Below are positions 16,000 to 48,665 of a DNA stretch of 64,000 nucleotides, piece by piece. The DNA is taken from contig JBNRSN020000024.1 of the NCBI GenBank assembly GCA_051313645.2, positions 59,644,001 through 59,708,000 on the forward strand. The letters run 5' to 3'. This stretch comes from Centroscyllium fabricii (taxonomy: Eukaryota). Position numbers and translations under genes: made by a program. Under the pieces are notes generated by a model. That model was not told the origin of the DNA. It was given only the letters and a program-made list of their open reading frames with translations, and ran no database searches. Every line of letters starts with the position of its first letter. Positions within the stretch are counted from its first letter, which is position 1.

Positions 16000-16491
16000 T
16001 AGAGTCATAGAGTTATACAGCACGGAAAGAGGCCCTTCGGCCCATCGTGTCCGTGCCGGCCATCAAGCCCAGTCTATTCTAATCCCATTTTCCTGCGTTA
16101 GGTCCGCAGTCTTGTATGCTATGGCATTTCAAGTGCTCATCTAAATGCTTCTTGAATGTTAGAAGTCACACAACACCAGGTTATAGTCCAACAGTTTTAT
16201 TTGAAATCCTGGTGTTGTCTGACTTCTTGCATTTGTCCACCCCAGTCCAACACCGGCACCTCCACTTCTTGAATGTTGTGAGGGTTCCCGCCTCTACCAC
16301 CCTTTCAGGCAGTGAGTTCCAGATTCCAACCACCCTCTGGGTGAAAAAGTTCCTCCTCAAATCCCCTCTAAACCTCCCGCCCCTTACCTTGAAACTATGC
16401 CCCCTGGTTATTGACCCCTCTACTAAGGGGAAAAGTTCCTTTCTATCTACCCTATCTATGCCCCTCATAATTTTGTACACCTCAATCAGGT
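16000..16491 (-). mobile_element. CR1 LINE 3' fragment with PLE insertion at 16161-16265
   Basis: ORF2 C-terminus YKIMRGIDRVDRKELFP...RRNFFTQRVVGIWNSLP and tail (ACTCTATG)n. Confidence 0.88.
16161..16265. mobile_element. Penelope-like element family B short fold-back insertion
   Basis: Inverted pieces of ...GACTTCTTGCATTTGTCCACCCCAGTCCAACACCGGCACCTCCAC. TSD TTCTTGAATGTT at 16149-16160 and 16266-16277. Confidence 0.8.
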
Positions 16492-23659: not shown

Positions 23660-25896
23660 GTAAGTGGAATGGGTAACGTTTTCTTTAAGGCAACATGAGT
23701 TTTTCCAGCATTTTCGGTTGTTTTGTTGTTATCATCAGAATGATGGTGCCTTGCTTGTCATATTGGTATTGTGTAAACTTCAAGTTTGTTTCACATTAGT
23801 CCGAGGCTGAGATTTTGCTGATTTAATTTATTCGCGCGATATTGGGACATGATTTCGTGAATATAACAACACACGATTAGTGCCAAACAGGACTGTCGGA
23901 TAACTTTCATATGTCCCGTTCAGTTGCTCGAAGAAATTGAGACCTAAATCATTTAGCATCAGTCCCTCAAATGACTATGTACTGCTTCGCAATTCGATAA
24001 AAAACAAACTGAATTGCATGAACATAAAACACTTTCGTTCAGCCCTCGTCCAGCAACTTTGCTGATCTGAAATGCGGGAAAAATGTGTATTCAGCGGGAG
24101 GCAACACGATGGGAGATGGCACCTTTCTTTAGCTGAGGCAAATTAAAGGCAAGATCAATAACCGCGAGTCCGAGAGGAAATCCATTGGCTCTGTCTGCCT
24201 CCTTGGTGTTTTTACTTTATTGTAACGATGTGATAAGTGGCTTTGAATAACAAAGTGTTTGAAGAGGAAATCATAGACAAAAGACATCTGGGCAGACCCT
24301 TGTCAGCAATCACCTAAATGAACTGCACACATACCTGCAATTCCCCATCCCACGAACTAAATCCATAACCAAGTGTACAATGTGAGTCTGATAGTAGATT
24401 TAGAGATATATTGCCTGCTATAGGGTAGTTATTTTTCTCATGCTTGTTAAACAAGTCATTCCTATCTAACTTTTCCTTAACTTTCATTTGCAACGATACG
24501 ACACGTATACAGTATTTACTGATCTTTATCAATCAATAACTTTTACTTGCTTTCACCATCTAGAAAACGTTTTTTTTTTACCATTTTAAATTAGATTGTC
24601 TCTGCCCTTAAAAAGTCTGTTTTAAGTTGCAAAGCAAATGTGACAGCAAAATATCCTTTGCCTATTGCTTATATACCGGAACCATTGATTGAAGCAGCCA
24701 CCCCCTCAGTTATTATTAATGAATGGTTTAATGTCAAGTTTGAAGACCTTTCTAATCAGGCTCTCCTGAAATCTCTTTCCTCCTCCGGGATCATGCGCCG
24801 TCATCACTTCAATCTGCCGTCACCTGTAAATGACGTAATATTTATTAATCCAACTATTTTTTTACGCCCAGCATGGATATGAGAGTCTTTTAAAATTGAG
24901 TTTTATTTTATTTTATACGCAGCGAAATTTTAGGCCAACGTTTTTAAAAACAAATTGCCGCCTTTGGAGCATTTTAACGACCTTTTCCCGAATATATTGG
25001 TGAGCCTTTCTCCTTGTTTTTTTTTAAAAGAAAAACTACAGGTAAACTTCGGCAGTGTCAAATAGTTTGTGCTCACCTGTTATACGATTTCGTTAAGCGT
25101 CATCTTAGTTAGAAGTACACTGACACTAAATATTGTACCGAAATACCTTCATATTTTAATATGAAAACTTAAAAATACCTTGATGTTTCAAGATGCAAAC
25201 TTTTTGTAAGTCTGGATCAAGATAGAGCCTTGGTGATCCTTACAAATACATTAATTAGCCTTCCACTTTTGATAGGTATTGTAACCGCGACTATTTTTTT
25301 TATAATTTTACCGATACTGCAAAACATATTTTACCTAAGTGGCTAAGGAAGCTTTCATATCCGTCCTGCACTTTAAATTGAAATGAGGAAGACACATAAA
25401 TAATCGGCTTAATGCAAATAATAAGTGAAGTCAGTTGCATTAAGAGGGGCAGATTCTGAGCTGACCATCAATGTTAATTCTGGTCCAATGCAAATCGTTC
25501 CCCACAACATTCGGACACTTTTGGTCAGTTTGCTGCTACAGATCTCTCGTTTGCACTGATTTCCAGGCCTTCCCCCCCAAAAAAAGAAACAGCCCAGTGA
25601 CCGATCTGTTCCACGCCGGTGTGTCGGTCCCGATTGATGGCAGTGGTTGATCTGTCCAATTATAAACGGCGTTTCTTCCGTTTGTGTGCTGGGAGACACA
25701 TTCGGGCAACATAAGTGGAATATTAACATTAATCTGTCCACTGGAAATGTAAATCAATGCCCGCGCTTTGCTCTTCTGGCGGGCTGCTATTAAGTTTGTT
25801 AACTGTACAACTGTACCGAATCACATTGAACATTTCTGTGATTATTTTTTGTTTCCCCCCCCCCGCCCCCCCTCCCCGTACGGTGCTGCTTTTCAG

Positions 25897-26120
25897 TCGT
25901 TTTGGTACCAAGTGTGCCGGCTGCTATCAGGGTATCTCCCCGAGCGATCTGGTGAGGCGAGCGAGGAGCAAAGTCTTTCATCTGAACTGTTTTACTTGTA
26001 TGATATGCAACAAACAGCTTTCCACCGGAGAAGAGCTCTACATCATAGACGAAAACAAATTTGTTTGCAAGGACGATTTTTTAAACAGCAATAATTCGAA
26101 AGAAAACGGCGCGCTCTCAG
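25897..26120 (+). CDS. LHX1: LHX1 exon 2 (LIM2 domain)
   Basis: Acceptor TTTCAG; [60 protein letters not shown]...; donor GTAAGG; phase consistent with exon 1. Confidence 0.96.
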
Positions 26121-26846
26121 GTAAGGGCAAATCCTCATAGTAAATATATATATATGTATATGTGTGTGTGTGTGTGCTTAATGGGAATCTGGGCGACAGT
26201 GTGGCCCAGTAATGTTACAGTAGCAATCGGCTGCAGCATTACTATAATCTCGCACGTGTTTTTCTCAATTAAATACTTTCACTACAACACACAGTGTGTA
26301 TTGCCATCGTAAAATGAAGAGGAATGTAAAATAATCGGGATTGGGGCTGCACGGGAATGACAAACGCGGGTGTAACAGGCTCAGGCTTTGAGCCTCCCGT
26401 TTCGCATCCACCCCATTTTAACAGTTATTTGCTGTTAATTTAATTAAATTCCATTTGCTTACTTGATCTATTACAGCGAGTAGCAGAATGTACGATTTTC
26501 GTGTAGCTTTTGTGTGACACATCTCCTGTTTGTCCATTGTACCATTTTATTCCGATTTAGATGTATGTTAACTTTTTTTTCCCGTTTCACATTTTTTTTT
26601 TACATTTTCATGTTAATATGAGAATGATTTGTTTTGAGTAGGAATATTTAGAGCATCCATAATTGTATCATTTTGGTGTGTTTGGCTTATCTCTTATTCT
26701 AAAACGTAAAAGTACTGTAATTCGGCTTTCCAGAGGGGCTATATTATCAATTACTAATACAGTCTCGGTAATTATCATCGTTTCAATGGGTTATTTATGT
26801 GATGTGAACTCATACATCATCCCATTACATTTTGTGTGTTGTACAG

Positions 26847-27124
26847 TAACGGCATGTAGTGATCAAAGTTTGTCACCGGATTCTCAAGATCATTTACAAG
26901 ATGACACAAAAGATTCAGAAAGCGCCAATGTTTCAGATAAAGAGACCGCCAATAACGAGAACGAGGAACAGAACCTGGGAGCCAAGCGCCGGGGTCCCCG
27001 CACAACCATCAAAGCGAAACAGCTGGAAACTCTCAAAGCGGCGTTTGCAGCCACTCCGAAACCCACCAGGCACATCCGAGAACAGCTCGCTCAGGAAACC
27101 GGGCTCAACATGAGGGTCATACAG
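26847..27124 (+). CDS. LHX1: LHX1 exon 3 (linker plus N-terminal homeodomain)
   Basis: [15 protein letters not shown]...[47 protein letters not shown]; donor GTAAGC. Confidence 0.96.
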
Positions 27125-27172
27125 GTAAGCGAGACATTCAGAACCGGGGGCTCCACTGTGGCTAAACATGGG

Positions 27173-27318
27173 GTGGAGGTGCCGGTGTTGGACTGGGGTG
27201 GACAAATGCAAGAAGGCACACAACAAACACCAGGTTACAGTCCAACAACAAGCTTGTGATTTCTAATAAAGCTGTTGGACTATAACCTGGTGTTGTGTGA
27301 CTTCTTGCATTTGTGACA
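27173..27318. mobile_element. PLE family B fold-back insertion in LHX1 intron 3
   Basis: Terminus GTGGAGGTGCCGG; the inversion occurs at ACAAGCTTGTG. TSD AAACATGGG at 27164-27172 and 27319-27327. Confidence 0.8.
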
Positions 27319-27387
27319 AAACATGGGAGACACGGAGGCAGGGAATTAAACCTGCTCTGAGTGTGGGGGGGGGGGGGGGGGGGGGTT

Positions 27388-27653
27388 CAGGGTGGGCCTG
27401 AGGCCAATTGAACCTATTTGACCCAATGGGGCCCCATTTGCAGAACAGAAAGCAAGAAAGATTTTTTTAAATATAGTTTTGTTTTGACACGCTTTATGTC
27501 AAAATATAAGCTAATAAATATAGATATTGCTTTTGTTTTTAATACAACGTAATAGCATATATTTCTGATACTTAATTTGAAATAATCTTAAATCCAGGGG
27601 GGGGGGCACCAAAATGGTCCAAATTGGGCCCCCAATTGCTAAGGCCGGCCCTG
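27388..27653. mobile_element. Non-autonomous DNA transposon (hAT-like MITE)
   Basis: Imperfect TIRs CAGGGTGGGCCTGAG / CTAAGGCCGGCCCTG. Confidence 0.5.
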
Positions 27654-29075
27654 GGGGGAATTAAATGAAGATGAATACTTCAGGAAACCGAGCAAAAGAG
27701 GGTTGTATAAGTGAGAGATTTAGAAACTGGGACAGAGTATTTTTTTTAAAACACAGTTAACTCGGGGAGGGCAGACTGAAGGTGGCAGTGGGGGAGGGGG
27801 GTCGTGCCCACGGGCACAGGTAATGGATAGCGTTGACCCGGGATAACCCCTCAGAGCGCTTTATCGCACAAAGAGCTGGATTCTCGGGACGGCTACACCT
27901 CAGCGGGGAAAAGTTTAAGCCGGGAGAAAGCCAAACAAGAAGAGGTGGGTAAACAAATCCGTTTTAATCGGGTCAAATGTGCGAGTAATGAAGGTAGGAA
28001 AACCCAGAAGACTGCAGCCAAGAGGTCAAGCCGCGTCCAAGCAAATATAAGTAGAGACAAATAACGCAGAGCAAATGATATGGGCAGAGCGGCACAAGCC
28101 ACCGTCAATCCAGAAACAAGTGTAAAGACAATAGCTGCACCAGCAAATCCGGTTAATCACAATGATTGTACAGAGGAGGGTTCAACTTGCCCGAGAGCAC
28201 CCTGCTTAGGGAAACAACCCGAGGTGTAAACAGCTCAGAGAAAATGAACAGGAATACCCGGGTTAAATGTTAGGGCAGCTGATTAAAAAAACAACCGACC
28301 GCAAGAGCGGGAGGAGAGAGCCGCCCCGAATTAAACTGGCAGTTGTGTGAGATAAGAGATTATTGCTGAACATTACATGCGCGATACCTCCAGCCCTGGG
28401 TGGGTGCAGAGAACCCCAGCTCTGAGGCAACGAAGGTCGAAAGACGATTATGTTGCAATGGGAACAATAACACCACATAGGGCATGTAAAAAAGGCAACC
28501 TTGTCTACGTGCATTCTAATTGTGGAATAGAGGGGCCGAGAATGCTGAGGTGGGTTACTGAAAGCGTAAGGCCGTCACTTTCGTCGACCCAGGTTAAATA
28601 TAGAACACCCCAGCCCCAGAGGATAATAATTACTGATAATCTTGCAGGGCAACTGGAATTAGCCTCAGAACCCTTCACCTGTCTTACAAAGCAAATTGTA
28701 TTCATGCAGATATGTTTCAATTTGTCGGCACTTCTGTGCAAACTGATTTGAAACATTAATTTCACTTCATTCAGTGCAATTTTGCGATTATTAAATGTCT
28801 GACTTTATTTCAATAACAAACTTAAGAATTGCACGATGTTGTTCAATGCGCCCATTACCTTGTTCAAAATGAAAAAGTGTGTTTTCAAAGGTAAACTGGA
28901 GAAAAAACGCTTACTTGCTTTTTCATTTAAGAGCCACCCTTTCCAGGATGTGACATTTCAAGCATATTTGCCACCATACAACAAATAACGGGACCATTCT
29001 GCATGTGAATATAGATTCAAAGAAGGAAGTCGAGTTTTAATTCAACTTGCAATTTGCATTTTTTAAATATAGCAG

Positions 29076-29245
29076 GTCCAAAGATGTGCGGGGTTAGGTT
29101 GATTGGCCAGGATAAATTGACCCTTAGTGTTAGGGGGATTAAATATGTGGGGTTACAGGGATAGGGTGGGAATATGTGTCGGTGCAGGCTCGATGGGCCG
29201 AAATGGCCTCTATCTGCACTGTAGGGATTCTATGATTCTATGATT
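29076..29245 (+). mobile_element. V-SINE, 5'-truncated, tail A
   Basis: GTCCAAAGATGTGCGG...GGGCCGAAATGGCCTCTATCTGCACTGTAGGGATTCTATGATTCTATG. Confidence 0.82.
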
Positions 29246-29593
29246 GGCTGCGTGCTAACCTAAGAGTCTGGGAATCAAGAGGATATCGTTGAAATGCTTG
29301 GCGTGACTGTTGTAAATTGGGTTCAGCGTTTAATTCTGGGGAAGCCTTCCGGTTTTCTTTCAGTTTATGAAACAGGGAGGTGTCAATATTAGCATTCTGT
29401 GTTTCAAGACTGGTTTGAGATTAATGTTGCAGTGTAGAATTAAACCAAGCTTTTTTTTTAAGAGGTGCTGCAGGTTTACCTTAGCTCTGAATGATGGGGC
29501 TGGGGAGGGTATTGTTTCGCCTTGTATGTATGGTTTAATATTAACTCAGGATTGTCGAAATAAAAGGAATGTTGCGGCTGCTTTGTGTCCCAG

Positions 29594-29759
29594 GTCTGGT
29601 TCCAGAACAGGAGGTCTAAAGAGAGGCGGATGAAGCAGCTGAGTGCTTTAGGGGCTCGTAGACACGCGTTTTTCCGCAGCCCCAGACGGATGAGACCCCT
29701 GGGAGATCGCCTCGACGGGGCTGACATGATGGGAAACGGCCCTTTCAATTACTACGGGG
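29594..29759 (+). CDS. LHX1: LHX1 exon 4 (homeodomain helix 3)
   Basis: Acceptor CCCAG; [41 protein letters not shown]...YYG; donor GTAAGT. Confidence 0.96.
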
Positions 29760-30630
29760 GTAAGTCCCAATTCATTTCTGTTAAACACTCCCCAGGATGT
29801 GCTTAAAAACTGATTACTTATTTAATGAGAAGGACGCTGCAAATTCAGTTTTACAGTCATGTATTGACGGACAATTGAAATACTGTATGAAGTTAGCCAT
29901 TTATTGACTTATTATTGACTTATTCAATCACTGATTACAGGAAGAGAGTCTCCGTGCTATTTTAAGGCTAAAGTATCTCTTTTCCCTCAACGATCTGCTT
30001 GTCAATGTCAGATCAGTTTCATATGCAGAATCAACTGAGCAGAGTTTCCCGCTGACAAGAACCGACTGAGGAACAGGGAACCCCAATAAGCAGCGTCCAA
30101 AATAAATGGCCCGCCTAAAATTACCATAGGAATATACAAAAGGAACTGAAATAATACAACATCTGTGTATATACGCCGGTATAAAAAGACCCAGGGAATG
30201 GCATACCCAGGTGCATTGCCATAGGGTTGTGTTTACCCCTGACATCTACACTGGGTTCTTAAAACGATACTTAGATGTAGATTAAAAGTCTTCTATTAAA
30301 ACAAACTATCGTTAACGTTGCTTACAATTGTGGGTTTTATTTTCCGATTTGCAGTTTAACAGAATACAATTAAACCAGGTTTCAAGCCTAAATAGGGAGT
30401 GCCATAAAGTTAAGGATTGTTGGGTAATATTTTAAAACTTTTATTTCCCCAAAGAAAAGTATATGGGTCGGCTTTACTTGATTATATTGCTGTGCATTAT
30501 GTATTCAACGTTTACCCGTTTTGACTTCGTATTACGAACATTTCACTATATTTGTGTAACGTGGACACTGTGATGTGAAACACGTGCTTCCGTTATATTT
30601 ACTTATAATTATGAATAATAAAATGCTTAC

Positions 30631-31043
30631 TTGGGTTGTTTTCCTTGGAGCAGAGAAGGCTGAGGGGGGACCTGATTGAGGTGTACAACATTATGAGATT
30701 ATTATAGGGTAGATAGAAAGGAACTTTTCCCCTTAGTAGAGGGGTCAATAACCAGGGGGCATAGTTTCAAGGTAAGGGGCGGGAGGTTTAGAGGGGATTT
30801 GAGGAAGAACTTTTTCACCCAGAGGGTGGTTGGAATCTGGAACTCGCTGCCTGAAAGGGTGGTAGAGGCAGGAACCCTCACAACATTCAAGAAGCATTTG
30901 GATGAGCACTTGAAATGTCATAGCATACAAGGCTACGGACCAAGTGCTGGAAAATGGGATTAGAGTAGACTGGGCTTGATGGCTGGCTCGGGGTCGATGG
31001 ACCGAAGGGCCTCTTTCTGTGCTGTATAACTCTATGACTCTAC
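30631..31043 (+). mobile_element. CR1 LINE 3' fragment with an empty PLE target site (30881-30893)
   Basis: LFSLEQRRLRGDLIEVY...FFTQRVVGIWNSLPERVVEAGTLTTFKKHLDEHL with no interruption at TTFKK; tail AACTCTATGACTCTA. Confidence 0.88.
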
Positions 31044-31858
31044 TTGATGCAACAGGAATGTTTTAGCTCCACTAGCACATATCTATTCAGACCAGCACGC
31101 AATTAGAAGAGTGCCTGGGATTGTTTAGTTTATATCTGGATCAATGTTATCTTGTAATTTATACCATTGACTTAATTTTTTTTAATGTCCTAGAATGAGT
31201 GTAGCGCGTTATAGATTTTTATTATTTTTCTATAATCCATACCGAGATATCGGAAAGGTCTATCCGGTACAATTCCACTGTACAATCCACTGGGTTAACA
31301 TGTGTGAACTTTTTTTTGTGTAATAAAGTTTCCCTGTGTCTGTTTAGTGACAGGCTGGCGGAGCTTCCAGTGAATTGTAAACAGCAGACTGGCTGTTATT
31401 TGATGGCGAGGACACGGGGAGGACAATAAGCACACAGGAGGGGATGGGGTTAATTCATATGGCGTGAATGTACAGCATTAAGTGGGAGGCTCTTAACAAA
31501 ACCATAGCACGAAGCTTAAACTTCAGCAACCCTTGAAGGCTCGAACCACCCCCCCCCCCCCCCCCCCCCAATAAAAACTTTTGGCTTTAAATCGGAGTTT
31601 AGCATCGTTCCCATGCATTTGGAAAGAAAGTTGTGATGTATGTGTCAAAATAAAAAGAGAATGCCCGCGCTCAAATTGCTGCATTATTGATTAATTATGA
31701 ACCATAAGCGGAGGAAGTTTATTTTTTTAACTTCATTTACATTGGAATGTGCTGGAAAGTTAATTGCTGATCCAACGTCTCCCAAGTACCTTTTAAAAGA
31801 AAACATTTTTTACAAGATATTTTACACGCGGCGTTAAGCTGGCAGGGATTTCCCCTTA

Positions 31859-32011
31859 CGATAGCGGATGCTGGAAATCCGAAATAACGCTGGGGGGAAA
31901 ACTCCGCAGGCCCAGGCAGCATCGGTGGAGAGAGAAACCGAGAGAAAGTGTTCCTCGCTCCACCGATGCTGGCTGGCCTGCTGAGTTTATCCCGCGTTTT
32001 CTGTTGTTATT
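31859..32011. mobile_element. PLE family A short fold-back insertion
   Basis: Terminus CGATAGC followed by an inverted arm. TSD GGGATTTCCCC at 31845-31855 and 32013-32023. Confidence 0.72.
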
Positions 32012-32249
32012 GGGGATTTCCCCAGATTCGATCTTACATTGAACCAGGACAAATTTGAAATTAAAACGAGGTCGGATATGATCGCATTTATTGACGTTTT
32101 CTATACAACTATTGCATGACTGGAAAGTGCCAGCCATCATCTTCATCCGTGCTCAGCTTAACCGCGGCGGCCAGTTCTAGGATGCAGGTTCTCCATTTAA
32201 TTTACTTATGTAAATTAGCATGCATTCAGGCTGAATCGAAAAAATAATT

Positions 32250-32460
32250 CGATAGCAAAATACTGCGGATGCTGGGAATCCGAAATAACAACAGAAAATG
32301 CTGGGAAAAAACTCAGCAGGCTAGGCAGCATCGGTGGAGAGAGAAACAGAGTCAACGTTTCAGGTCAATGACCTTTCGTCAGAACTGGAGCAGCCAGGGG
32401 GGGCGGGGGGGATAGATTTTAAAGTTTGTGGGGGCTGGGGAAAGGGGGGGTCTGAAAGAA
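32250..32460 (-). mobile_element. PLE family A pLTR fragment with hammerhead (32350-32386, minus strand)
   Basis: Terminus CGATAGCAAAATACTG; minus strand AGTT-CTGACGA-A-AGGTC ATT GACCT-GAAACGTT-GACT. Confidence 0.75.
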
Positions 32461-33821
32461 TAACTCGTCAGATACAGAGTACTGCAACGGCGTTTAAATT
32501 GAAATATATTCTAGCAGGGAATTTCAGAAAAGCCTTCAAAAGAATTGACTGCACATTTAACACTTTTAAAATATATATATAGATCCCATTAAGATTTTGG
32601 GGGTGTAAATGATGTTGGTGCGTGAACCATTGGTTTTCATGCTCGGATTTTTAAATAATGCGTATTGGGAGTAATTTGCATGAATACCTGTGGATCATTT
32701 AGGTAGCAGGCTGCTTTCAGAACACTTCACTGAATTTGGTAACTAGGTAACTAAGTGCGAGTGCACGACTTAAACCTCGGCTCCGAATAATCAACTATTT
32801 TTACAAGATCTTTCAGCCCACGGTTGTGGGATGATGGCAGGCTGTTATTTGGCGTGTGCTCGACAATGACTAGTGGAGTGGTGGTTTTGTGAGAGCGGTT
32901 GCGTTTGTGTAAAATGAGTGAGCATTATTCAAAAAGTGGGACCCTGCTGGGCCAGACCTTGTGTGTGATAGGGATTAATAACACCGAATAGTTTCCCAAG
33001 CGTTTGTTTGCAATCACATCTGCTTCATTTTTCACTTACAGAGATGAAATCTTGAGCAAAAAAAAAACCCCAAGACATCAGTCTGATTTGCAAATGGGAC
33101 ATAAATTAAGCACAAAAAAAAAAACATTTGATTGCTGTTTGCCTTGCCCGTTGCGCGTCACACTGTGAATTCACAGAGTAATTCTGAGCAATGGAGTTTG
33201 GGGCTGCTCAAATGTAAGGCTCATTAGCCAAAAGAGAAAATAATTCACTGTGTCACAAAAATGTTCTGATTTTATATTCTCTGAAAGAATTTCATACATG
33301 TTTGTTTTAGCCACTAAAAAAAATTAAAACGCCTAGAATGGTGTAAATGGTTTATTTTGTCTTAAACCTGGCACCAGAGACATGCCCTATGATTGGGTCT
33401 CATTTGATCAGAAAGCAATATTACCACTTTGTCTCACCGCCCTAGGTACAACAACCCCGTTTTATTTCACATTGCTACAGAGCAGCATGTCGGCCTCCAT
33501 CCATGGTTCCCAGAGATATGGGAAGGTTTCCTTTCTGATCACAGATTTCAGAATGACAGCAGATCAACTCGAGTACCTTAAGAGTCACAGAGTTATACAG
33601 CACGGAAAGAGGCCCTTTGGCCCATCGTGTCCACGCCGGCCATCAAGCCCTGTCTATTCTAATCGCACTTTTCTGCAGTTGGTCCATAGCCTTGTATGCT
33701 ATGGTGTTTCAAGTGCTCATCTAAATGTTTCTTGAATGTTGATGTGCCGGTGTTGGACTGGGGTGGGCAAATTTAAGAAGTCACACAACACCAGGTTATA
33801 GTCCAACAGTTTTATTAGAAA

Positions 33822-33858
33822 TCACAAGCTTTCAGAGCGCTGCTCCTTCCTCAGGTGA
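33822..33858 (-). ncRNA. Minimal hammerhead ribozyme motif (PLE family B)
   Basis: Minus strand: TCAC-CTGAGGA-A-GGAGC AGC GCTCT-GAAAGCTT-GTGA. Stem I TCAC/GTGA, palindromic stem III AGCT. Confidence 0.75.
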
Positions 33859-33958
33859 AGTGAAGAGATGCATATAGGCACAGCATATATAGTCAGAAAA
33901 CAATGCCAGATGATTATTCTCTGACTATATATGCTGTGCCTATGTGCATCTCTTCACT

Positions 33959-33995
33959 CCACCTGATGAAGGAGCAGCGCTCCGAAAGCTTATGA
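33959..33995 (+). ncRNA. Minimal hammerhead ribozyme motif (PLE family B), sense in LHX1 intron 4
   Basis: CCAC-CTGATGA-A-GGAGC AGC GCTCC-GAAAGCTT-ATGA. Core intact, stem I mismatched. Confidence 0.65.
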
Positions 33996-34525
33996 TTTCT
34001 AATAAAACTGTTGGACCATAACCTGGTGTTGTGTGACTTCTTATATTCTTGAATGTTGTGAGGGTTCCTGCCTCTACCACCCTTTCAGGCAGTGAGTTCC
34101 AGATTCCAATCACCCTCTGGGTGAAAAAGTTCCTCCTCAAATCCCCTCTAAACCTCCTGCCCCTTTATAAAGACCAACAATAAATGCAATAATCTGGGAA
34201 CCAATGCGCCTGGCTTTATGTTGAAGGTTGAATCTAGAGACCACATTGTAACTGTGTGTGTGTGTGTCTTGGGAGGGGAATAAGCAGGTTGATGCCTTTA
34301 AAGGCCAATTCATGTTTAGGAGGTGCCTACCCCATTATCAGTTCTGCAACGTGCAAGGGAGATAAACGAAAGTCACCGATTTCAATTCTGAAGTTTTCAG
34401 AGTGCAAGGCCAGGTTAGGAATTAAGTGCAAACGTTGTTACTGTGAGTTTTGAATTCGTTGTGTTCCTATTATGATTTCACCTGGCTCGCGTTTTGGCTT
34501 TGAACAATGCGTTGCTGAAGCACCA

Positions 34526-34559
34526 CGATAGCAAAATACTGCAGCATGTTCTGCTGTTA
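34526..34559. mobile_element. Ultra-short PLE family A fold-back insertion
   Basis: CGATAGCAAAATACTG followed by CAGCATGTTCTGCTGTTA from the opposite strand, flanked by TTGCTGAA(G/A)CA at 34512-34522 and 34560-34570. Confidence 0.55.
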
Positions 34560-34656
34560 TTGCTGAAACATTAGTTTATCGGCTTGCAAAGTTCATTCGT
34601 CCCTACTCTTCTTTGTATTTGACTTCTTGAAACTGCAATGTGGGTGCACCAATAAT

Positions 34657-34808
34657 GTGGAGGTGCCGGTGTTGGACTGGGGTGGACAAATGCAATAAGT
34701 CACACAACACCAGGTTATAGTCCAACAGTTTTATTTGAAATCACAAGCTTGTGATTTCAAATAAAACTGTTGGACTATAACCTGGTGTTGTGTGACTTCT
34801 TGCATCTA
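34657..34808. mobile_element. PLE family B fold-back insertion forming a 116-bp palindrome
   Basis: Palindrome 34690-34805 centred on AAGCTT (34745-34750) with one mismatch; flanking duplication TGCACCAA at 34645-34652 and 34809-34816. Confidence 0.82.
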
Positions 34809-34883
34809 TGCACCAAATGTGTAGGGCTGCATAAGGATAACGTATATTTATATTTATTTGCTCCCTTTTTTTTTCATTCCCAG

Positions 34884-35272
34884 ATTATCAGACTGAATAT
34901 TACGGTCCTGGAAGCAATTATGATTTCTTTCCTCAAGGGCCCCCCTCGTCTCAGGCGCAGACTCCAGTGGATCTGGGTTTTGTGCCCTCCTCCGGGCCTG
35001 GGGCGACCCCACTCGGCGGGCTGGAGCACCCGCTGCCCGGCCACCACCCCAGCAACCTGCCGGGCCCAGGCGACAGCCAGAGGTTCACCGACATGATCTC
35101 TCACGGGGACTCTCCGAGCCCAGAGCCGGGTCTGACAGGACCGTCCATGCACTCGATGGCGGCGGATGTGTTCGGGCCGGGTCCCAGCCCGTCGTTCTCC
35201 CTCACCAACGGGGGATACACCAGCCATTTGTCACATCCGCCTCCGGAAATGAACGAGGCGGCCGTTTGGTAA
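34884..35272 (+). CDS. LHX1: LHX1 exon 5 (C-terminal domain, to stop)
   Basis: Acceptor TTCCCAG; [31 protein letters not shown]...[10 protein letters not shown]. The spliced CDS is 1227 nt, 408 aa. Confidence 0.96.
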
Positions 35273-47884: not shown

Positions 47885-48665
47885 TCATCGAGTCATACAG
47901 CACAGAAAGAGGCCCTTCGGCCCATCGCGTCCGCACCGGCCATCAAGCCCAGTCTATTCTTAATCCCATTTTCCTGCATTTGGTCCGTAGCCTTGTATGC
48001 TATGGCATTTCAAGTGCTCATCTAAATGCTTCTTGAATGTTGTAAGAAGTCACACAACACCAGGTTATAGTCCAACAGTTTTATTTGAAATCACAAGCTT
48101 TCAGAGCTCTGCTCCTTCGTCAGGTGTTTGTCCACCCCAGTCCAACACCATCACCTCCACTTCTTGAATGTTGTGAGGGTTCCTACCTCGACCACCCTTT
48201 CAGGCAGTGAGTTCCAGATTCCAACCACCCTCTGGGTGAAAAAGTTCTTCCTCAAAACCCCTCTAATCCTCCCGTCCCTTACCTTGAAACTATGCCCCCT
48301 TATTATTGACCCTTCTACTAAGGGAAAAAGTTCCTTTCTATCTACCCTATCTATGCCCCTCATAATTTTGTACACCTCAATCAGGTCCCCCCTCAGCCTT
48401 CTCTGCTCCAAGGAAAACAACCCCAGCCTGTCCAGTCTCTCTTCATAGCTGAAGCGCTCCAGCCCAGGTAACATTCTGGTGAATCTCCTCTGCACCCTCT
48501 CCAAAGCAATCACATCCTTCCTATAGCGTGGCGACCAGAACTGCACACAGTACTCCAGCTGTGGCCTTACCAGCGTTTTGTACAGCTCCATCATAACCTC
48601 CCTGCTCTTGTATTCTATGCCTCAGCTAATGAAGGCAAGTATCCCACATGCTTTTTTAACCACCT
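47885..48665 (-). mobile_element. CR1 LINE 3' fragment with PLE insertion at 48044-48160
   Basis: MELYKTLVRPQLEYCVQFWSP...FFTQRVVGIWNSLPERVVEVGTLTTFKK. Confidence 0.9.
48044..48160. mobile_element. PLE family B insertion with hammerhead (48091-48126, minus strand)
   Basis: TSD TTCTTGAATGTTGT at 48030-48043 and 48161-48174; minus strand CAC-CTGACGA-A-GGAGC AGA GCTCT-GAAAGCTT-GTGA. Confidence 0.82.

Follow-up and report, generated by a model that had tools for sequence, protein, structure and literature searches.

The palindrome of a predicted hammerhead joins the arms of an inverted Penelope-like insertion in Centroscyllium fabricii, probably after priming on both target strands

The near-perfect palindrome at positions 34690-34805 of the 64,000-nucleotide stretch of Centroscyllium fabricii DNA analysed here (the window) is part of a 156-bp, TSD-flanked, head-to-head inverted stub of a Neptune/Nematis-type Penelope-like retroelement (PLE). 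We consider it probable that the stub arose by priming on two strands, with the cDNA ends joined through microhomology. The architecture of such insertions is already published and the focal copy is an ordinary example of this known product. Both of its arms stop on one hexamer, so that the focal sequence by itself does not discriminate between the mechanisms, and the argument is taken from its siblings.

The palindrome comprises 116 bp with its centre at 34747/34748, inside AAGCTT (34745-34750). Outward from the centre, 51 perfect pairs are followed by one mismatch and six further pairs (58 positions), in agreement with an earlier note made from the sequence. The hexamer is common to both arms. 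The tailed arm (34690-34750, minus strand) is element sequence from about +55 to -6 in reversed orientation, and the untailed arm (34745-34805, plus strand) runs from -6 to about +55, positions being relative to the predicted hammerhead cut. A one-sided tail of 37 bp (34653-34689, minus strand, about +55 to +93) is found on the left arm only. The 8-bp TSD copies, TGCACCAA, occupy 34645-34652 and 34809-34816 on the plus strand, and three bases before the right copy (34806-34808) lie outside any part. These two arms, the one-sided tail and the TSD confirm that we are dealing with a PLE insertion of the inverted-pLTR type, as the earlier note had proposed. Furthermore, a contig search identified the empty site in another species, where the sequence runs from 34650 straight to 34816 and the element is absent.

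Chance does not account for the palindrome, because the exact 16-mer of the AAGCTT junction occurs at 606 sites of the 7.2-Gb genome that was searched while the control gave 0. An assembly fold-back, the artefact against which the earlier note had warned, deserves practically no credence as its source. No contig was found to cross the entire palindrome in contig-level data, which would suit such an artefact. However, the TSD, the tail on one side only, the mismatch between the arms, the 606 sibling junctions and the empty orthologous site all argue against it, as do 14 of the 15 sibling loci fetched, which show the two-armed layout of the focal copy between differing flanks. In addition, 99-100% of the words sampled from the stretch are present in four public runs, all from a single study that may have supplied the reads for the assembly.

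In longer copies of the same family (family B), the stub sequence is continuous with an ORF carrying RT (Pfam RVT_1, E 1.4e-08 and 1.2e-06). Between RT and EN, three copies (L153, L143 and L156) have a C-x4-C-x2-C linker, which fits the CX2-5CxxC linker located between these domains in the clades Neptune and Nematis (PMC8557442, excerpt). A GIY-YIG-like end (VVY..C-x3-C..YIG and a downstream H..H, CCHH-type) was recognised by eye; Pfam returned no GIY-YIG domain match in the linked copies. The nearest database proteins of the ORF are unnamed shark proteins. The near-full-length copy L143 consists, in this order, of an inverted tailed arm, a pLTR, an ATG at about +91 into which the tail leads, the ORF and a second pLTR. 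Its long arm crosses two hammerheads, and comparison of its three hammerhead copies does not distinguish the source pLTR of the inverted arm. The partial pLTR tandem with an inverted truncated copy in L143, the one-sided tail and the TSDs correspond to the layout of EN+ PLEs, and the element fits a Neptune/Nematis-type EN+ PLE.

The core of the predicted family B hammerhead (CUGAnGA / GAAA / UH) and its helix II were located by motif search, with intact copies at window positions 33860, 33957 and 48129. Numbering follows the hammerhead consensus (see also PMC4209133, excerpt). The predicted self-cleavage point of this minimal hammerhead is after GAAAGCUU; we count the final T in GAAAGCTT as -1 and the G that comes after it as +1. 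AAGCTT constitutes the helix III palindrome, as the earlier note had recognised in calling it a self-complementary stem III beside the predicted cut. It ends at the predicted scissile bond (after 34750 on the plus strand of the focal copy) and lies wholly 5′ of it. With minimal type I PLE hammerheads (PMC4209133, excerpt), the motif shares the CUGAnGA core, helix II, GAAA and a 1-bp helix III with a palindromic loop that would need a dimer; in contrast, the predicted family B motif has a U at the cleavage position. A single-strand fold forms helix II alone (z -0.99), and an Rfam scan gave no match to a hammerhead family. The microRNA hairpin mir-2513, which the same resource offered, was rejected since its 64.2 bits are below the gathering threshold of 89 and the match is that of a generic long stem.

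A second, independent stub is present at 27173-27318 with its own 9-bp TSD, AAACATGGG (27164-27172 and 27319-27327). It is composed of a tailed arm (27173-27247, minus strand), the dinucleotide AC and an untailed arm (27250-27314, plus strand) starting with AAGCTT (27250-27255). The earlier note had reported a second strand switch at this place. That it is a separate insertion with a TSD of its own and a plus arm beginning at AAGCTT holds, but the left arm has lost 15 nt beside the centre and the parse as a fold-back rests on the two bases (AC) beyond the hexamer. The contig search found no empty-site contig for this copy. The exons of a LIM-homeobox gene, which we take to be Lhx1/Lhx5, span 25733-35272 of the window. 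Both focal stubs are intronic, about 45 bp past a splice donor and about 75 bp ahead of an acceptor.

Three further family B insertions in the window (within 16143-16280, 33730-34060 and 48030-48175) share one site, TTCTTGAATGTTG, of a CR1/L2-like repeat, and the internal junction is different in each. The arms of the first (16155-16265) are joined downstream of the hammerhead (+3/+31). Those of the second (33739-34047) both pass through the whole hammerhead and are joined at about -91/-79. The third (48041-48160) is a tail-only inversion, in which an untailed arm from +54 to -33 is followed by the reversed tail (+55 to +91). The word that combines the tail with the TTCTTGAATGTTG site occurs 265 times in the genome, and the 12 fetched copies at this site (L266-L277) include five short complete ones with five different junctions. 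Judged by these sequences, TTCTTGAATGTTG is a recurrent target that was hit independently.

Tight fold-backs, whose arms meet at most 17 nt from the cut, occupy 1,523 sites in the genome (control 58). Among the 50 listed, counted by hand, exactly AAGCTT lies between the arms in 23 and none has zero spacer, that is, a blunt junction at the cut. Taken over the family, the 606 AAGCTT junctions amount to 0.33% of at least 183,955 intact hammerhead 16-mers. Moreover, AAGCTT did not serve as the junction in any of 52 inverted pairs drawn from plain blocks or with the help of an anchor lying downstream. Three other self-complementary joins are as common or commoner, namely the stem II loop (643 exact sites), a GAAG/TGAAG overlap at about -35/-25 (1,019 exact sites) and a TGA overlap at -33/-28 (1,436 exact sites), each on a short inverted overlap. 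All self-complementary places of the hammerhead are used repeatedly as junctions. The classes were counted singly with patterns that differ in length and CpG, so that the counts are only roughly comparable, and the AAGCTT pattern is favoured in them as the shortest and the one without CpG. AAGCTT is a local junction hot spot and globally only one of several minor join points. The breakpoint enrichment at stem III envisaged in the earlier note is thus present among the listed tight fold-backs and absent from the unbiased pairs; with other junctions commoner, stem III is not supported as the birthplace of the inverted pLTRs.

Family A, with 33,531 intact 20-mers, yielded 61 tight fold-backs. Among the 50 of these that were listed, seven fall on AACGTT, seven on GTTAAC and about eight on a third overlap. 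They are split evenly over the palindromes of the family, and AACGTT, to which the earlier note had wished to relate the breakpoints, receives only its share. The hammerheads of family A are also interrupted, at or near the predicted cut and in both orientations, by an element of about 800 bp with G-run/C-run ends (block at 59.07 Mb, L108, L119, L124 and L189; an apparent 3-bp duplication in three cases), possibly a DNA transposon preferring the family A hammerhead palindrome.

Arm ends were mapped against long arms gathered into a library; for short pairs, comparing the 5′ ends of all arms with one another was dropped, as it ran through the junctions of other copies. Of the 41 junctions that could be mapped cleanly, about 18 lack an overlap or contain a small number of additional bases, and therefore microhomology is not obligatory. 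Two long pairs with an equal spacing of 2,854 bp were considered as related, but the coincidence is fortuitous as each carries different nested insertions.

The 3′ ends of the arms form two groups, at about +55 (untailed) and at about +88 to +93 (tailed). Among 75 inverted pairs, 69 have one tailed arm, four have both arms untailed and two have both tailed; single-arm copies are untailed in 40 cases and tailed in 38. The TSD has a median of 12 bp (58 pairs), compared with mostly 5-8 in 300 mismatched-flank controls. In the clean tailed/untailed pairs (40, leaving aside both focal copies and any pair in which over 12 nt were unassigned), the untailed arm extends further upstream in 24, the tailed arm in 12, and four are ties. 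In those 24, neither arm can have been copied from the other, since the untailed arm has no tail and yet reaches beyond the tailed one. Tail-only inversions (window 48041, L082 and L087) end where the other arm begins, as would be expected if two primers had used a single RNA. A family A copy around position 3434 of L264 resembles, by eye, a tail-only inversion.

A comparison of alleles is possible in 44 pairs with two whole hammerheads. The arms are identical at all diagnostic sites in 29 of them (10% expected at random). In 14 the arms differ at shared family alleles inside the hammerhead, seven of these at two or more sites; one, L118, is possibly two insertions. Arms that differ within the hammerhead need two templates. 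Variants mirrored between the arms of L002, L007 and L012 look private, but they are subfamily alleles and hence no proof of self-copying.

Based on these features, the following sequence of events can be proposed. The target would be cut in a staggered manner and offer two priming ends. Both target strands would then prime reverse transcription at the two fixed starts of the element, either by twin priming on one RNA or by dual priming on two. In the focal copy, the two cDNA ends would anneal via the self-complementary AAGCTT in a microhomology joining, and host repair would fill in the joined product. A cDNA ending in AAGCTT scarcely folds on itself (its last base is paired in 5%), and two such ends pair at -5.8 kcal/mol.

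One alternative is a snap-back, in which a single cDNA (or an antisense template) folds at the palindrome and copies itself. It has been proposed for palindromes at the inverted junctions of Adineta PLEs (PMC3846280, excerpt) and would account for the shared haplotype of most arms (29 of 44) and for the correlation of the arm ends (rho 0.45). It is also compatible with the 12 of 40 pairs in which the tailed arm is longer and with a few arms that end unusually on their 3′ side (L148 and L109), and the stem II and -35/-25 junctions are able to form real hairpins. However, AAGCTT leaves no space for a loop, and stem II, which makes the best hairpin, does not outnumber the others as a junction. 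The longer untailed arms in 24 of 40 pairs, the tail-only inversions and the arms with different hammerhead alleles (7-14 of 44 pairs) also stand against self-copying. In such pairs the second arm does not simply reproduce part of the first without change, a comparison that the focal copy does not decide; within the AAGCTT class, two of 23 differ at the +8 site. As a general route, and hence as the general mechanism suggested in the earlier note, the snap-back is excluded, while self-priming may apply to a minority of copies; for the focal stub we regard it as improbable. About equally doubtful is a later collapse, whereby the centre of an originally longer inverted insertion was removed through microhomology-mediated repair between two AAGCTT, which are direct repeats of each other. 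Two-armed copies spanning the hammerhead do contain AAGCTT twice, the 27173 copy has lost 15 nt beside its centre, and microhomology deletions are known in PLEs (PMC3846280, excerpt). Yet the outcome would be a perfect palindrome. Perfect palindromes are usually the less stable state. The loci of the AAGCTT class also look young, with 7 of 14 aligned pairs showing no difference between the arms, though these loci were picked by exact match.

The earlier note had further suggested a link between self-cleavage and integration, and a related scenario would have the ribozyme cut the RNA and the enzyme run off or switch template at the cut, with the fold-back arising there. AAGCTT does abut the predicted cut and is the junction in 23 of the 50 listed tight fold-backs, and breaks at +1 are more numerous (942 sites) than at the control position +5 (819), an excess of at most about 1.5-fold; on inspection by eye, 28 of 30 breaks at +1 (some of them internal deletions) and 22 of 30 at +5 were real, and several +1 breaks use a GTG(A) overlap of helix I. 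In two cases the 3′ end of the second arm comes as close as 4 nt or less to the cut, at +4 (L130:5030-5075) and -3 (L148:5057-5086), as would happen if priming had occurred at the end of a 5′ cleavage product, and discordance between arms is skewed to the hammerhead side. However, the junction retains six nucleotides 5′ of the cut. The 3′ fragment of a cut RNA has no AAGCTT, and since the hexamer is 5′ of the predicted bond, the template of a cDNA containing it was RNA that either had not been cut or had been joined again. None of the 50 listed tight fold-backs is blunt at the cut, 136 of 152 arms reach past -10, the end rate at -1 to -10 is the lowest measured, and one L143 arm runs through two hammerheads. 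Neither inverted junctions nor cDNA ends peak at the scissile bond in the junctions and arm ends surveyed. In vitro, hammerhead mutants leave insertion by the anole PLE Poseidon (PAc) unchanged and no reads end at the cut (PMC11167929, excerpt), and minimal PLE hammerheads are weak cleavers (PMC4209133, excerpt). A junction set by cleavage is not supported, and as the origin of the focal copy it is highly unlikely. Rather than making a junction-setting cut, the hammerhead would supply inverted microhomologies and mark where the RNA has its 5′ end.

A more speculative role concerns the template. The helix III palindrome could dimerise two element RNAs, each priming one target strand, with the enzyme jumping between the RNAs at a cleaved dimeric hammerhead; we give this idea only a small chance. 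Discordant pairs match downstream of the cut in 11 of 14 cases (25% expected, p 4e-5), as do four of the seven pairs with at least two hammerhead differences (p 0.01). One-sided discordance could also arise if the variable position in the core had mutated repeatedly, or if the arms came from sister source genes or from unlike pLTRs of a single source. If true, an RNA dimer with a template jump would explain how arms often differ inside the hammerhead and still match downstream, and it would give PLE hammerheads a direct part in integration. Single insertions whose arms differ in stem II or core alleles and agree downstream of the cut are L112, L273, L274, L076, L265 and L277.

The arm ends also bear on the start of the RNA. 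Among 152 arms not chosen by an intact hammerhead (window arms, L157-L165 and L226-L260 left out), the rate of ends per nucleotide at risk is 0.44% at +18 to +1, 0.29% at -1 to -10, 0.60% at -11 to -21, 1.97% at -22 to -41, an interval picked after seeing the data, and 0.45% at -42 to -81. Among the 42 clean pairs, the longer arm stops at -27 to -41 in 26, and a stop at -28 to -41 is seen in 12 of 78 single arms. TATAWW starts at -69 to -62 in 45 of 103 long arms and is absent from the other 58; this zone is about 30 nt ahead of the pile-up of arm ends. Family A has TTTAAAA near -64 (by eye), and a TATA with an initiator-like element is known in a PLE pLTR (PMC3846280, excerpt). Many cDNAs may thus stop because they reach the 5′ end of an RNA initiated in the pLTR. 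The template probably begins just before the hammerhead, at about -32 to -40, which would explain why most short copies end there. Subfamilies diverge just upstream of -33, which may inflate the pile-up; a library of 61 arms and the clean junctions lessen this bias without abolishing it.

The family B insertions share with the insertion units of EN+ PLEs (PMC8557442 and PMC3846280, excerpts) the head-to-head arms, one tail of 30-40 bp, a TSD of about 8-16 bp, a pLTR that contains the hammerhead, an inverted junction with palindromes or overlaps and, in L143, a partial tandem plus an inverted copy. What differs here is that the junction counts cover a family whose intact hammerhead 16-mers number at least 183,955, and that the arm geometry of family B argues against the self-priming reading in the excerpt of PMC3846280. 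The manner in which PLEs form inverted-plus-tail insertions is described as undefined in the excerpt of PMC8557442. For Poseidon PAc, both target strands are cut and extended in vitro (PMC11167929, excerpt). Two RT starts bounding the tail, extension of both strands and, according to the PAc data, the dispensability of hammerhead cleavage are common to both systems; PAc belongs to a different clade and its hammerhead overlaps the ORF start, whereas the ATG here follows the tail at about +91. L1 twin or dual priming (PMC2837659, excerpt) likewise involves priming on both strands and opposed cDNAs joined within one TSD, often by microhomology. However, in L1 twin priming the second start is a random internal site and an inversion with deletion results, while here that start is fixed and most often leads to an inverted duplication. 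In the literature searched, mostly non-subscription, no title or abstract opening on twin priming of PLE junctions was found.

Family B is large enough for junctions to be mapped by the thousand. On the resulting map, self-priming is a poorer account than priming on two strands followed by microhomology joining, and the front edge of the hammerhead is indicated as the RNA start.
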